DNA of 64,000 nt from a virus (taxonomy: Duplodnaviria; Caudoviricetes): positions 64,001 to 128,000 of the IMG/VR virus record IMGVR_UViG_2974671799_000001; one strand, written 5' to 3'. The translations under genes and the position numbers were made by a program. Below, one piece after another: positions 15,460-55,405 of this stretch. Under the pieces are notes generated by a model. The model was not told where the DNA came from and made no database searches. It saw nothing but the letters and a program-made list of their open reading frames with translations. Position 1 is the stretch's first letter. Every line of letters starts with the position of its first letter.

Positions 15460-15558
15460 ATCTATATGTTTTTATGTTGCAAATATAAAACAATTATTTG
15501 ATTTTACAAGTTTTTAATTACAATTTCTATAAGAATTTTTTAAACCTCTCTCCGCGCT

Positions 15559-15712
15559 TTTATTTATGTTATTTGTATTTATAATATATAAAAGAAAATG
15601 CACCTAGGTACATTTTTACTGATTTTCTTTAAATAAAAAATTCGTTTTATTGAGAATATGATAAAGAAATTGTTAAAATATTGTCGCTACAGCAAGGTTT
15701 GTATATGTCGTA
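15559..15712. repeat. 154-bp non-coding dispersed repeat, copy 1
   Basis: Ungapped match (18 mismatches by manual count) to 54984-55137; contains palindrome AAAATGCACCTAGGTACATTTT (15595-15616). Confidence 0.95.
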
Positions 15713-16031
15713 AATTTTTCGGGTGTAAATGTTTAAAATTAAACAAATTTTAGAAATTTGTTAAATTCTTATAAAACGTTGTAAATCATTTACTTAAAAG
15801 TGTAATTGAAAATGTTAAAAAATTGGTCATGTTAAATATTTTACGTATGTGATTTTTAACAATTTTAACAAAATTTTAACATTTTATTTTTGTGCTAAAA
15901 TAAAAAGTGTCGAAAAATAAAAATCCGTTTTAAGGGATTAAAAATAATATTATATACTAAATATATAAAAATATATTAAAGTGTCTTAAAACGGCTAAAA
16001 TAGCTTTAAATTTTATTATATGGTAAAATAA

Positions 16032-16052
16032 AAGCCTCGTAAAACGAGGCTT
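16032..16052 (-). terminator. intrinsic terminator hairpin
   Basis: AAGCCTCGT-AAA-ACGAGGCTT with T-run on the minus strand. Confidence 0.75.
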
Positions 16053-16074
16053 AAACAAATTATTATGAAGCAAA

Positions 16075-48435: not shown

Positions 48436-50019
48436 TTATTTTTGTAGTGATTTAGCCCATTGCACTAATGGATTGTTCACAACTTCACTCGACTTTGATT
48501 CGTTAATGTTTTCTTGAATCGCTTTAACGTTATTATTATTAAAACGTCCAATCCAAAAACGTGTCATTTGACTTTCATTTACGAACTCTCTACTCTCAGC
48601 TTGCTCAAAAACAAAGTTTTTAAACTCTTCTGTAGAAGATTCCCATAAATGTTTAACGGTGTTTGGCATTGCTTCAAGTAACGTTTGTTTTTTCTCTTCG
48701 GCTTCCGTGATTTGCTTTTGCTTCTCAACTTCAACAGCCTCATTCACTAAACGCTCCTTTTCTTTAGCTCTAGTCATAGATTCAAGTTGCTCTTCAATTC
48801 TTTCAGATAATGACTTCTGTTCACCACCCTCATTGATTTGCTCTTCTTGATTCTCATTTATTGATTCATCAACTTGTTTACCATCGTTTGGTTTATCGTC
48901 TTCTTTAGACTTATCACCACCATCGTTAGTATCTACTTCTTCTTTAGCTTTATCACCATTTTTAGTATCTTCATTTGCATTTTCTTCTTCTTCTTCCTCA
49001 GTCTCATTTTTAGACTCTAATAATGCTTTAAAATCATCATTTAGAGACTCTAAGAACCAACCTTGGATAGCAGGCGCAAACTCATTTACAGTCCATTTTT
49101 GATAAGCCATCGCAGACTCATTTTGTGCTTCCATAACCTCTTCCATAATCTGAGGTCGGAAATGCTCATTTAAGTAGTTTAATTGATTTGGTGCAAATTC
49201 TTTGATTACCCAGTTTTGAGTAGCTCTACCAAATTTAACCATTGACTCGTGAAGTAAGTTTTGCATCTTTAATTCAGATTTCTCGATAATCTTTGTTAAG
49301 TTTTCATTGAAGAATTTCTCAACAATATCTAAATCTAAATTTTGTGAACTCTCAGTAACTAACTCAGCTTTTAACTCAGCTTTTAACGACTCCTTTAATG
49401 CCTCAACATCAATAGACTCTGTTACTTGTTTTTCTTCACCATCCAATGAATAACAAGCTGTCTCAATTATATATGTTTCACCTTCAACTTCTGACTCCAT
49501 TACATCAACCACAGCTTGTGAAAACCCTGGTTTGTAAACTAAATCAAACGTCTCTAAAACACTCAATTTCACCTCTTTAGATTCGGTTACAACACCTTTA
49601 CCTCTAGATGAAATCTTTAATTTAAGACCTCTTTTTACAAGCTTTTGCATTAACTTACCTTTATCAGTATCTAATAAAAGAATAGTTCCTGTTACAACAC
49701 CACTTTCACTAATATTAATAGATTCAAGTTTGTGTGATACATTATCCCATGTTAATTGCATTGTTTTTGGATGCTCAACTTCACCAAAAACAGCTTCATT
49801 TTGCATTCTAGCTTGTAATGACTCAACAACAGACTTGTAATTATCATAAGAATAAAAACGATTGTTGTTGTTCATAACTCCTGTTACACCAAATACACCA
49901 CTTAAACGCATACATCCATCAGGAACTTCACCTAGTGATTCATTGAATTTCGAATCTTTAGCACTCTCTAAAATTAAAGAGTTGGTCTTATTCAATGAAA
50001 TAATTACTTGTTCTTTCAT
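48436..50019 (-). CDS. prohead protease (gp21-like) fused to scaffold/core (gp22-like)
   Basis: N.NNRFY, GEVEHP, ISSRGKG, FDLV..PGF protease motifs, then an acidic helical region with many (I/L/V)xE-S sites. Confidence 0.9.
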   Translation of the reverse strand: MKEQVIISLNKTNSLILESAKDSKFNESLGEVPDGCMRLSGVFGVTGVMNNNNRFYSYDNYKSVVESLQARMQNEAVFGEVEHPKTMQLTWDNVSHKLESINISESGVVTGTILLLDTDKGKLMQKLVKRGLKLKISSRGKGVVTESKEVKLSVLETFDLVYKPGFSQAVVDVMESEVEGETYIIETACYSLDGEEKQVTESIDVEALKESLKAELKAELVTESSQNLDLDIVEKFFNENLTKIIEKSELKMQNLLHESMVKFGRATQNWVIKEFAPNQLNYLNEHFRPQIMEEVMEAQNESAMAYQKWTVNEFAPAIQGWFLESLNDDFKALLESKNETEEEEEENANEDTKNGDKAKEEVDTNDGGDKSKEDDKPNDGKQVDESINENQEEQINEGGEQKSLSERIEEQLESMTRAKEKERLVNEAVEVEKQKQITEAEEKKQTLLEAMPNTVKHLWESSTEEFKNFVFEQAESREFVNESQMTRFWIGRFNNNNVKAIQENINESKSSEVVNNPLVQWAKSLQK

Positions 50020-50116: not shown

Positions 50117-50145
50117 AAACCGTAGAACTTTTTGTTCTACGGTTT
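50117..50145 (-). terminator. intrinsic terminator hairpin
   Basis: AAACCGTAGAAC-TTTTT-GTTCTACGGTTT with T-run on the minus strand. Confidence 0.8.
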
Positions 50146-50199
50146 GAAGTAAACATAATCAATTTTTAACCCCTAATAAAAAATGAAATGTTATTTGAA

Positions 50200-50298
50200 T
50201 TAGTTTCCTAATGCGTAAGAAGCACCTTTACCACAATCTTTTAAAAATTCTTTAAATGCTTTAAAAACTCTTCTTAATTCAATGTTAAATTTTTTCAT
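50200..50298 (-). CDS. 32-aa amphipathic micropeptide (not in ORF track)
   Basis: MKKFNIELRRVFKAFKEFLKDCGKGASYALGN*; alternative ATG at 50304; own -7 element (50350-50357) and terminator. Confidence 0.7.
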   Translation of the reverse strand: MKKFNIELRRVFKAFKEFLKDCGKGASYALGN

Positions 50299-50378
50299 AA
50301 TCATTTAATTTTAATGTTTTTAATCCCCGTAATTAAAATAATTACAGTACAAATATATTAACTATTTATTATTTAAAG

Positions 50379-50418
50379 TGTTAAATAAATGTTAAATAAA
50401 TGTTAAATAAATGTTAAA
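50379..50418 (-). promoter_or_regulatory. four 11-bp-phased TTAACA boxes (OmpR/PhoB-type direct repeats)
   Basis: Plus-strand TGTTAA at 50379, 50390, 50401 and 50412 (unit TGTTAAATAAA), at the -33 position of the micropeptide promoter. Confidence 0.7.
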
Positions 50419-50424
50419 GTTAAA

Positions 50425-50442
50425 AAGCCCCTTTCGGGGCTT
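50425..50442 (-). terminator. intrinsic terminator (GAAA loop on minus strand)
   Basis: AAGCCCC-TTTC-GGGGCTT followed by a T-run on the minus strand. Confidence 0.8.
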
Positions 50443-50445
50443 GTT

Positions 50446-52182
50446 TTATAATAATCCTGATAATGAATAATCATCACCAAAAATTAAAAGCTGTCTTTTA
50501 CCAGTATCATGAATAATATCATGTGCGTGTGCATGACTAGACATACCTTTTCTTGTATAATGTTGTTTTAAAGTAGCACTTAAACCTACACAATGACTAC
50601 CATTCATAATTGACGGACTGTGAGTGTGTGCAGTAGTTGTCTTACTACCCGATGATGCGAATTGTTTAACAGTTCCTTTAGAACCATTTGTGCCACTCTC
50701 ACCATGAGACGATATAACAATACCATTAATACGAACAGTTCTACCACATTCAATATAGTCAACATACTTTTTATTTTCATACCTCTTATTAACAAGATAT
50801 CCAAATAAGCACCCGTGTTCTGTTAAATCAGTAGATTGCATTATACTAGCATATTCTAAATATGTTGCGGAATTGTGTAAATCCTTCTTCCAATCCATAT
50901 CATTAATGTGTCTATCTAAGAACCAATCGTGATTCGATTCAATAACCAATATCTTATCACATTTGAAATCCTTCTTAACCATTTTCGGAAACTCTACAGC
51001 TTGCTCAACCTCATCTTTAATTAAGAATTTGCCTTGTAAAATCTTTTGACGCTGTAAATAATAATCACGTCTCTCATGTGGATTAAACCTATAACCATCT
51101 AAAACATCATGTAAAACAACATTTTTAGGTCTTAAAGATTTTGTTAATCTCTTTGTAGCTTCATATAACTTCATATCTAAAAGCTCTCTATGAATATCAC
51201 CCATTACCAAACCATCAACTTTTTTAATGATTGTGTGTTCACCATCCTTAATTCTAATATTCAAATCTGTGAATGTTCCATCAGTATCAGCAGAAACAGA
51301 ACGAGGAATATAACAAGTGTCTTTATCCTTCTTTTCAATGATTGTAAATCCATATGTGTGATTAAAGAATCCATCATCACCAGTTAATGAACGAGAATAA
51401 TTCTTAACACTTAATGCACCTGTAGATGCTCTAACTCTCAATGCATCACCTCTAAAACGTGGTGCTGTTTCTAAATGTATTCTAGGTGAACCAACAACTA
51501 AATGGTTATTTCCTGCGTGTGATGGCATACCTTTTAATGGTTCTTTCTTTGTTGGTCTAATATGTGAATCAGAAGAAATTACACAATCACCAAATTGAAT
51601 TTTATTATAGAATAAATATTTATCAACTTCAACATCCCACCATTGCATCCTAGCGTGTTTCTTAGATAATTGTTCAGCAGGACTCGTTGGATTTCTGTAT
51701 CTAGTAGGTATTACAATAATTTGAGCTTTCTTGTTAAATTTTTCTTTAAGAACTTCAATATATGTTTTGATATTTCCCCAAAGCTTATAATTTAAAGCTG
51801 TGGTGTTTTGTGCGGATGTAACGATTAAAATATCAGTATCTTCATCTATATTTCTTAATTGCGCTCGTTGTAGTTGAGGTGGTAATTTTGAAGCAGGTTT
51901 TGATAATTCTAGTTTAACCCACCATTCTCTAATGGTTCTGTCAGTAACACCAAATTTCTTTGTGAGTTTCTCACACTTCTCAACATGATTCAAATCATCA
52001 GAATAATAAATGGTTGTTATATACTGTATATCTTCATCTGTAAGTTTTCTGAAACCTTTCTTTGCGGTCTTTGAAATCTTAACATCATTTTCAATTCCGT
52101 TATTTGATTCTTTAGATTTTTTAGCCTTGGCTTTATTGTTATTTGATTTAACTTTAGCCTTGCTATCAGTCTTTTTACTCAT
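50446..52182 (-). CDS. T5 A1-like calcineurin-type metallophosphoesterase/nuclease with N-terminal HTH
   Basis: VTSAQN, MGDIH, HDVLD, SNHD, HG..G.NG..G, HTHS and GKR motifs; HTH-like LTKKFGVTDRTIREW. Confidence 0.75.
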   Translation of the reverse strand: MSKKTDSKAKVKSNNNKAKAKKSKESNNGIENDVKISKTAKKGFRKLTDEDIQYITTIYYSDDLNHVEKCEKLTKKFGVTDRTIREWWVKLELSKPASKLPPQLQRAQLRNIDEDTDILIVTSAQNTTALNYKLWGNIKTYIEVLKEKFNKKAQIIVIPTRYRNPTSPAEQLSKKHARMQWWDVEVDKYLFYNKIQFGDCVISSDSHIRPTKKEPLKGMPSHAGNNHLVVGSPRIHLETAPRFRGDALRVRASTGALSVKNYSRSLTGDDGFFNHTYGFTIIEKKDKDTCYIPRSVSADTDGTFTDLNIRIKDGEHTIIKKVDGLVMGDIHRELLDMKLYEATKRLTKSLRPKNVVLHDVLDGYRFNPHERRDYYLQRQKILQGKFLIKDEVEQAVEFPKMVKKDFKCDKILVIESNHDWFLDRHINDMDWKKDLHNSATYLEYASIMQSTDLTEHGCLFGYLVNKRYENKKYVDYIECGRTVRINGIVISSHGESGTNGSKGTVKQFASSGSKTTTAHTHSPSIMNGSHCVGLSATLKQHYTRKGMSSHAHAHDIIHDTGKRQLLIFGDDYSLSGLL

Positions 52183-54983: not shown

Positions 54984-55137
54984 TTTATTTATGTTATTTG
55001 TATTTATAATATATAAAGGAAAATGCACCTAGGTACATTTTCACTGATTTTCTTTCAACGAAAAATGCGTTTTACTGAGAATCTTCCAAAGAATTTGTTA
55101 AAATATTGTCACTACAATAAAGTTTGCATATGTTGTA
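54984..55137. repeat. 154-bp non-coding dispersed repeat, copy 2
   Basis: Matches 15559-15712 in the same orientation; identical palindrome at 55020-55041. Confidence 0.95.
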
Positions 55138-55367
55138 TCGTTTACCAGTATAAACCACGAAAAAAATTACACTAAGTTTACGTTCCCTTAACATTAAATT
55201 TACATTAAACGACTTAAACATTTAATAATCAAATAATTATGAAAATTGTTAAAAATGTTAAAATTTTTCACTTATTAACATTAACTTAACATTCGCTAGA
55301 ATTTCGCTATTTTCTTAACATTAAATTAACATTGGAAAATGGTCGTTTTTGGGTCATTTTTTATATA

Positions 55368-55405
55368 AAAAGTGGCTTTACGAATTAAATCAGAAAGCCA
55401 CTTTT
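55368..55405 (-). terminator. intrinsic terminator hairpin
   Basis: AAAAGTGGCTTT...AAAGCCACTTTT. Confidence 0.7.

Follow-up and report, generated by a model that had tools for sequence, protein, structure and literature searches.

The micropeptide cassette and its surroundings

We analysed a stretch of 64,000 nucleotides (hereafter the window) that corresponds to bases 64,001-128,000 of the viral record IMGVR_UViG_2974671799_000001, a genome of 234,670 bp with 28.7% G+C that is rated complete. The phage is a Shirahamavirus-like jumbo phage and a relative of Tenacibaculum phage PTm1, with marine Flavobacteriia as hosts. The element in question is a small cassette on the minus strand of the window (to which all cassette coordinates refer), in which four TTAACA boxes and a promoter element precede an open reading frame (ORF) for a micropeptide. 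The original prediction had regarded it as a self-contained unit under Pho-box-like control.

The cassette begins with an intrinsic terminator (AAGCCCCGAAAGGGGCTT followed by a T-run, 50425..50442; 7-bp stem with 5 GC pairs), which closes the gene for a 578-aa A1-like protein. The boxes come next (50379..50417, repeat unit TTAACATTTAT), individually located at 50417-12, 50406-01, 50395-90 and 50384-79, spaced by exactly 11 bp and lying over and upstream of the -33 position as a putative Pho-box array. Tandem Repeats Finder (TRF) delimits the repeat at 50374-50418 (period 11, 4.0 copies, 97% matches, score 81), with three consecutive exact matches to TTAACA-N5-TTAACA. It is the sole array in the 234,670-bp genome with at least three boxes at pure 11-bp spacing; in the remaining three-box clusters, the spacing is 9/11 or 12/9. 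A -7 element of the Bacteroidota type, TATATTTG (50350..50357), follows 21 nt past the last box and is not accompanied by a TTTG at -33. The predicted transcript would start with a hairpin, GTAATTA-ttt-TAATTAC (50329..50345), followed by the conserved leader motif GGGGATTA (50321..50328), which is located 16 nt ahead of the first ATG. The micropeptide ORF (50200..50304) encodes 34 aa from the ATG at 50304 or 32 aa from the ATG at 50298, and its stop codon occupies 50202-50200. In the 3' region, a degenerate second copy of leader and start was found (GGGGTTAAAAATTGATTATG, 50154..50173), the reading frame of which passes through the terminator. It is probably the vestige of a second cassette arranged in tandem, and tandem duplicates do exist in a host genome (G030). 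The intrinsic terminator of the cassette transcript (50117..50145; 12-bp stem and T-run) would limit the latter to about 235 nt.

In the surrounding 1 kb, three terminator-like sites are present, both cassette terminators among them, as compared with 0.3 +/- 0.5 in shuffled sequences. The two terminators, the four boxes spaced by 11 bp, the -7 element and the 32-aa ORF had all been described in the original prediction, and every one of these details was recovered, including the exact translation. With its own promoter and flanking terminators, the cassette is, by its predicted signals, a self-contained monocistronic transcription unit, as had been claimed.

The A1-like gene located directly upstream (50446-52182 on the minus strand, with its stop at 50446) encodes a 'DNA transfer protein'-like product with 59% identity to a PTm1 protein and has hundreds of marine relatives. 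At 79 loci around A1-like genes in related viral contigs, neither a similar ORF nor a TTAACA pair was found. The next gene downstream of the cassette (48436-50019) encodes a prohead core serine protease (Pfam S77) and is followed by a 590-aa ORF which we take to encode a capsid protein. Judged by these neighbours, the cassette is placed among head-morphogenesis genes, between the A1-like and prohead protease genes, and its earlier description as lying inside the head operon is a reasonable one.

The micropeptide family and its product

When the peptide was compared by tblastn with 50,697 phage records, the sole match was an unannotated intergenic stretch of PTm1/PTm5, located between ORF-120 and the helicase gene of PTm1, that is, at a genome position different from that of the cassette. 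This PTm1 cassette has its own promoter (TTTG-N19-TATATTTG), a GGGGA motif (GGGGAGTTA) and a terminator, and its open frame ends with ...ECGKGAFYALRK-stop at the aligned stop position. Searches of viral contigs with an exact 23-mer and the degenerate pattern CGKGA[SF]YA returned PTm1 only, and none of the 57 stretches matching the latter pattern in metagenome contigs was cassette-like on inspection. Comparison with 1.84 billion protein representatives by phmmer yielded nothing but the peptide itself, context searches with single-protein queries found no relatives, and a language-model search for look-alikes of the peptide gave scores of at most 0.84 and no usable lead. No paralogue of the ORF was detected in its own phage genome, and no family in Pfam or NCBIfam covers the peptide.

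Host members were found with a two-row profile made from the two phage copies and run against 401 Flavobacteriaceae genomes, and then with iterated profiles. The two-row profile produced mostly noise, the two best matches being ORFs of 29-32 aa that ended with ...GASYALRK-stop and ...AASYALNH-stop. The surroundings of both were alike, with rplU-rpmA in divergent orientation and a gene for a DUF4199 membrane protein next to the ORF, and one of them had a tandem paralogue. Altogether, the family comprises 15 ORFs, namely those of this phage and of PTm1/PTm5 and 13 host ORFs from 9 Flavobacteriales genomes. In an order-level sample, matches at E <= 0.001 were present in 4 of 401 genomes, and a tblastn search of the phage records with one host member gave no match. 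The family ORFs are 28-34 aa long (28-33 aa in hosts) and end with [GA][AS]SYA[LI]xx-stop, where YAL is followed by GN, RK, QH, NH or similar residues; EF[IL]K-like helix residues are found before this tail. The suggestion that the GKGASYA ending occurs in small flavobacterial proteins thus checks out, and the conservation search that had been proposed along with it shows the ORF to be conserved in PTm1/PTm5 by tblastn and in hosts by profiles. From these comparisons, we conclude that hosts and jumbo phages have in common a micropeptide family with an invariant C-terminal tail, which is represented neither in Pfam nor in NCBIfam.

Two of the host genomes carry several copies, two in tandem in G030 and three in G707. 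Host members in G100, G030 and G323 (loci L372, L376 and L381) have a conserved leader of the form GGAGGG ... CGTTCTA ... gctattatcATG. As for a possible identity with bL38 or another ribosomal protein, this candidate was rejected: bL38 is described as a 5.6-kDa protein encoded in the bL28-bL33 operon (PMC11851116), while the host cassettes are found near rplU-rpmA on the opposite strand.

Three host copies (G536, G707b and G707c) share with the window the -7 box, the 5' hairpin, the motif (A/G)GGGATTA, a spacer of about 15 nt, the ATG, 33 codons and the terminator. The hairpin of G536/G707 is located at the same place, has 5-7 bp and includes one compensatory variant (GTTATT/AATAAC). The leaders of the other family members are different. 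Because the whole unit is common to the window and G536/G707, with leader and terminator included, we regard the cassette as what looks like a clear instance of capture, in which a phage took over a host micro-gene in full (leader, ORF and terminator) and altered only its promoter logic.

The coding character of the ORF was assessed over the 15 members. The stop is located exactly two codons past the conserved Leu/Ile in 15/15 ORFs, the mean pairwise difference amounts to 0.42, 0.38 and 0.58 at codon positions 1, 2 and 3, respectively, and conserved residues are encoded by various codons (TCN as well as AGY for Ser; TTA, CTT, CTA and TTG for Leu). By the codon-position signal, the Ser codon switch and the fixed stop, the ORF is a member of a real protein-coding family. 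The same data bear on a different explanation, according to which the functional product would be a regulatory RNA of about 235 nt (5' hairpin, GGGATTA, structured body and terminator), while the ORF would stay untranslated in the phage. This would account for the absence of a canonical start codon from the PTm1 copy, for the conservation of the leader and for a 24-nt block in the ORF tail that differs between the two phages at one position (TCT vs TTT), with no synonymous change in eight codons. Moreover, the RNA folds better than shuffled sequences (z = -3.4). However, this score is dominated by two obvious hairpins, and no Rfam 15 family reached its gathering score (the best, SpF39, with 41.8 bits vs 60, aligned over the terminator; the host cassettes gave no match). 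The variation concentrated at third codon positions, the alternation of Ser codons and the invariant stop do not fit an untranslated frame either; the ATG is present in 14 of the 15 members, and hydrophobic periodicity is kept through non-synonymous changes. We therefore consider a purely RNA-based function improbable.

As for the product, AlphaFold2 run on a 10-row alignment predicted one helix spanning residues 2-31 (mean predicted local distance difference test score, pLDDT, 83.5). The best 18-residue segment has a hydrophobic moment of 0.79, a value equalled in 0.05% of 2000 shuffles, and the peptide of about 3.7 kDa carries a net charge of +5. The predicted product is a single cationic amphipathic helix residing in the cytoplasm, and in this respect the charge and the hydrophobic moment bear out the cationic amphipathic peptide proposed originally. 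The invariant G-A-S-Y-A-L tail suggests a specific protein partner rather than bulk action on membranes, and the effect on membranes or on a regulator that had been proposed originally is a guess.

The peptide resembles CIII of phage lambda and AzuC of E. coli in size, in having a single amphipathic helix and in being encoded by a stand-alone small gene. These proteins represent the nearest named clusters by language-model features, with scores of 0.75-0.78 that are below the level meaningful for the tool. However, no sequence similarity and no common motif exist, and membership is not claimed. Another resemblance concerns the SsrA tag added by transfer-messenger RNA (tmRNA), which reads GENNYALAA in the host: in the family tail, Y-A-L is equally far from the C-terminus (-5 to -3). 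In place of the terminal Ala-Ala, which defines the ClpX degron, the family has polar or basic residues. Because Ala-Ala is not kept, we do not count the peptides among SsrA degrons, and the three shared residues could be due to chance.

The box array among phage and host promoters

Promoter counts in the phage were based on a crude gene map of its genome with 281 ORFs. The motif TAnnTTTG is 2.7-fold enriched in intergenic regions (5.09 per kb vs 1.89 per kb genome-wide), and 42 matches are located 20-39 nt ahead of start codons. The consensus of 60 phage promoters consists of an A-rich tract, TTTG, N19 and TAtaTTTG, and by these motifs it is the Bacteroidota sigma-A promoter. The cassette shares with these promoters a canonical -7 box, as TATATTTG fits TAnnTTTG and is placed in the same manner, but differs from them in two respects: i) the -33 position reads ACACT/CTTTA and contains no TTTG, and ii) the -7 box is separated from the ATG by 53 nt instead of the usual 20-40 nt. 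As for i), TTTG ends 19 nt before TAnnTTTG in the 60 promoters, and its absence here agrees with the earlier statement that the boxes replace the -33 element. As for ii), the unusual distance arises because the conserved leader intervenes.

Two other readings of the cassette promoter were rejected. A sigma-70 arrangement (TTAACA-N16-18-hexamer) gave 6 promoter-like sites in the region and 6.9 in shuffles, and for a sigma factor of the extracytoplasmic function (ECF) type, no sigma domain was found in the phage. Many of the phage promoters are nested in the preceding terminator, so that the -33 TTTG is located in the hairpin loop and the T-run passes straight into the -7 box; examples are found upstream of the ORFs at genome positions 6024, 24547, 34714 and 183734.

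To place the array in a wider context, GTDB (one genome per species) was scanned for TTAACA-N5-TTAACA-N5-TTAACA, which gave at least 122 stretches, 80 of them with flanks. Pfam was run on 60 of the 64 first downstream ORFs (at least 60 aa long and within 400 nt), the other 4 being dropped as duplicates from overlapping loci. Among the matches listed, 15 of the 60 were of phosphate-transport types: five PstS-type proteins, six with an ABC permease domain, two Na/Pi cotransporters with PhoU, one PHO4 and one PhoU_div. The matches listed for the other ORFs included two SusC-like receptors, an OmpR-type regulator, a histidine kinase and a HAD hydrolase. Bacteroidota examples are also among the matches listed, for instance PHO4 in a Spirosomataceae genome.

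Within Flavobacteriaceae, no box pair was found directly upstream of pstS in 17 loci, because the operon is headed by a Porin_O_P gene, which pstS follows. The order of the operon is porin-pstS-pstC, and homologues of the Porin_O_P gene were detected in 153 of 251 sampled genomes. The porin promoter, which is strikingly well conserved over 30 loci, reads aTAACgTTnnn-GAAACATTAAG-TTAACATTGGT-N-TTaTTTGC-agcGACAAAAACTAATA...ATG. TTAACA is present in 27 of these promoters, after two weaker boxes at an 11-bp period, and in 22 of the 30 it is located exactly 10 nt before a -7-like TT[A/C]TTTG. For the two-box core AACRTT-N3-TTAACATT, 118 occurrences were counted in 81 genomes, as compared with 26 for its reversed control. 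Of 22 distinct ORFs downstream of this core, 19 were scanned (the three left out have porin-type promoters). They comprised four PHO4 and three Porin_O_P proteins, one SusC-like receptor, three aspartyl-tRNA synthetases, four members of other families and four ORFs without a family.

Since two independent phosphate-uptake systems carry the same motif, it can be read as the Pho box of the family. There is thus good comparative evidence that the TTAACA-type box found ahead of porin-pstSCAB and PHO4 represents the Flavobacteriaceae Pho box, which we infer to consist of wAACATT repeated three times at 11 bp, the proximal TTAACATT being separated from the -7 box by 10 nt. No description of a flavobacterial Pho box was found in a literature search of titles and abstracts; only a general definition of Pho boxes as 11-bp direct repeats is given in a review (PMC9306846).

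Further box sites were noticed in the host genomes. In many genomes (L405, L410, L417 and others), the porin promoter is preceded at a distance of about 250-310 bp by another three-box site, aACAACATTtag-GTAACATTAAA-TTAACATT; sites of this type are also found ahead of PHO4 in some genomes and, at 130-150 nt, ahead of aspS in three. In Algibacter and Mariniflexile (L290, L304, L300 and L303), TTAACA-N5-TTAACA pairs located upstream of rpsF are kept between both genera, and a conserved TTAACA pair ahead of a DUF4442 gene is followed after 23 nt by TAACTTAG. The same two genera (L305 and L291) have an array of three TTAACA boxes between the arms of a perfect 13-bp inverted repeat (atgctattttaac ... 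gttaaaatagcat); within 350-400 nt downstream of it, there is no ORF of at least 60 aa.

Finally, a weight matrix was made from 27 host porin promoters only, and both strands of the phage genome were scored with it. The cassette array received the top score of the whole genome (22.2). The next sites (window 55177 and 55304, genome 211,441 and 211,314) scored 18.6-21.2, and the maxima in five block-shuffled genomes were 19.3, 14.2, 9.1, 11.6 and 14.4.

The sites ranking next are part of a duplicated non-coding island of about 300 bp, located at window 55100-55400 on the plus strand and, outside the window, at genome 211,300-211,500 on the minus strand. The island has at least nine TTAACA/TTTACA-type boxes at 11-bp spacing (matrix scores 21.2, 21.2, 19.9 and 18.6), including TTAACAttaaaTTAACAttgg, which resembles the host porin Pho promoter, and a 16-codon ORF (MKIVKNVKIFHLLTLT) between the box groups. 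In the window copy, a terminator hairpin (GTGGCTTT...AAAGCCAC) is found within about 60 nt after the last box pair. Another repeat, intergenic and about 400 bp long, is present in four copies (window ~15460-16074, i.e. genome 79,460-80,074, and genome 60.3, 138.7 and 181.7 kb). Most of its aligned columns are invariant, and its features include three TTAACA boxes spaced by 9 and 11 bp, inverted copies of the box (TGTTAA), a hairpin and a GC-rich block, CTCTCCGCGCGC. One of its ends doubles as the promoter of the neighbouring gene, and it has no Pho-matrix score. Apart from these repeats, three tRNAs were detected by ARAGORN in a 1.1-kb gap outside the window (genome 191,520-191,594, 192,032-192,111 and 192,399-192,478), one with the anticodon CUA (labelled tRNA-Pyl; possibly an amber suppressor) and two tRNA-Ile(UAU).

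Tandem copies of the same 11-mer were also found in an unrelated viral contig, G001 (L162; 10,678 bp, 30% GC, all genes on one strand). Its three promoter gaps contain TTAACA arrays of 4, 2 and 3 boxes at 11 bp, located 10, 21 and 20 nt before -7-like boxes. G001 encodes a weak ECF-like sigma factor (r2 17.6 bits, r4_2 11.2 bits), and for this reason it does not represent clean independent support for a Pho function of the boxes.

Possible phosphate control of the cassette and other explanations

The explanation that we prefer, tentatively and somewhat short of calling it probable, is that a captured host micropeptide gene has been placed under the control of host PhoB. The normal -33 TTTG would have been replaced by four in-phase TTAACATT boxes, as found before the porin/pstSCAB and PHO4 operons. 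Without an activator, such a promoter would be weak because it has no -33 element. During phosphate starvation, phosphorylated host PhoB would bind the boxes as tandem dimers and recruit sigma-A RNA polymerase to the -7 box, leading to synthesis of the peptide, which would then bind a conserved host target through its invariant tail. The scan of host genomes for TTAACA-N5-TTAACA at phosphate genes, proposed as a check along with the Pho-box idea, found boxes before pst, Pit and Na/Pi genes across phyla, and in Flavobacteriaceae boxes of this type precede porin and PHO4 genes. Pho boxes consist of at least two direct repeats with a 10-11-bp period, and the cassette has four at exactly 11 bp. 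The Pho-box-like nature of the array held as regards its match to phosphate-uptake promoters across phyla and in Flavobacteriaceae; in its geometry, the array is in phase with the -7 box but one helical turn further from it than in the host pst promoters.

Several observations weigh against this explanation. Between the nearest box and the -7 box, 21 nt intervene, as opposed to 10 nt in the host porin promoters, and therefore the box which is proximal to -7 in the host is missing from the cassette. The best of the shuffled genomes (n=5 shuffles) reached 19.3, not far below the 22.2 of the cassette array. Spacers included, the four units do not differ from one another (97% by TRF), as recent slippage of the single TTAACATTTTT of PTm1 would produce, and the PTm1 copy itself has a canonical promoter and a frame without ATG, GTG or TTG. 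No TTAACA box arrays were seen at host copies of the micropeptide gene, and convincing family ORFs are rare, being present in 6 of the 401 sampled Flavobacteriaceae genomes. In the phage genome, neither phoH (PF02562) nor pstS (PF12849) was found. In Flavobacteriaceae, two-box TTAACA sites are likewise found ahead of genes unrelated to phosphate, rpsF, DUF4442 and aspS among them; the motif is therefore not exclusive to phosphate genes, and the boxes may not be exclusive to PhoB. According to a cyanophage study, Pho boxes identified in silico on a phage genome are unreliable as predictors of PhoB binding or induction (PMC10976474).

The identity of the units, together with the single TTAACATTTTT located in PTm1 just upstream of the canonical TTTG, at the homologous place, makes slippage expansion a live alternative. 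The array would then be devoid of regulatory meaning: an 11-bp AT-rich unit, recently multiplied by replication slippage, would have displaced the -33 element with at most a curved-DNA or UP-like effect, and the cassette would be weakly constitutive or decaying. Such an origin would suit an AT-rich 64-kb window in which TRF lists 53 short tandem arrays, as well as the missing host-type box nearest to -7 and the vestigial second leader copy, which suggests remodelling of the locus. On the other hand, the same 11-mer occurs in tandem and in phase with the -7 box in the unrelated G001, and the array keeps the register (10 + 11 nt) of the host Pho promoters, although one helical turn further away. 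Four further top-scoring phage sites have different spacers and are located at two other loci, the ORF is intact, and the tail is conserved. We find this explanation unlikely.

The non-phosphate neighbours of the boxes might instead indicate that the gene is as described above while its array is read by a factor other than PhoB, i.e. another host response regulator of the OmpR family whose half-site is similar or a phage DNA-binding protein belonging to an unrecognised family, in which case the signal would not be phosphate. Downstream of the two-box sites kept in two genera are rpsF and a DUF4442 gene, and further two-box sites are followed by aspS, HD and CAP genes; in other genomes, triple TTAACA arrays are found ahead of genes for a histidine kinase and an OmpR-type regulator. 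G001 combines arrays in its three promoter gaps with the weak ECF-like sigma, and the phage genome itself contains other TTAACA/TGTTAA-rich repeat families with 9/11 spacing. Nevertheless, two independent phosphate-uptake systems of the hosts carry the motif, and across phyla it is linked to pst, Pit and Na/Pi. The host-derived matrix ranks the cassette array first, and searches of the phage genome for an OmpR-type winged helix or for the sigma domains r2 and r4 detected none. A reader other than PhoB thus appears rather doubtful to us.

We can also speculate that three loci with host-type PhoB boxes, namely the cassette, window 55166-55340 and the paralogue of the latter at genome 211.3 kb, make up a small Pho regulon belonging to the phage itself. 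The peptide, ending with ...GASYALGN, would mimic the SsrA tag and serve as a helical decoy for a tail-recognising protease or adaptor, or for a ribosome-rescue factor, when phosphate runs out, thereby protecting phage or host proteins. We consider this scenario far-fetched; should it nevertheless be true, the host micropeptides with SYAL tails would be endogenous modulators of the same machinery.

PhoB control of a captured host gene, the explanation preferred here, can be compared with two known systems. In Bacillus subtilis, the PhoP core binding region consists of four TT(A/T/C)ACA repeats with an 11-bp period which replace the -35 element. The cassette array is alike in hexamer, period, repeat number and loss of the upstream element; however, the phylum and the sigma factor differ, and the resemblance is by motif only. 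In cyanophage P-SSM2, pstS and phoA are reportedly under the control of host PhoBR (Zeng and Chisholm). Genes of cyanophage S-PM2d are a further example of control by host PhoBR (PMC10976474). The cassette would share with the cyanophage genes the presence of host-type Pho boxes before the own genes of a lytic phage and a host two-component system that reports phosphate stress. It differs from them in that the host belongs to Bacteroidota and not to Cyanobacteria and that the putative boxes are TTAACATT at 11 bp combined with a -7 TAnnTTTG. Furthermore, its cargo is a peptide of 32-34 aa and not a phosphate-acquisition or PhoH protein of the kind expected from an auxiliary phosphate gene.

Reading of the host phosphate sensor by phages is documented for cyanophages. 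If PhoB control of the cassette is true, the principle would also hold for phages infecting marine Flavobacteriia, a group with a major part in the degradation of algal blooms, and for cargo other than a nutrient-uptake gene.

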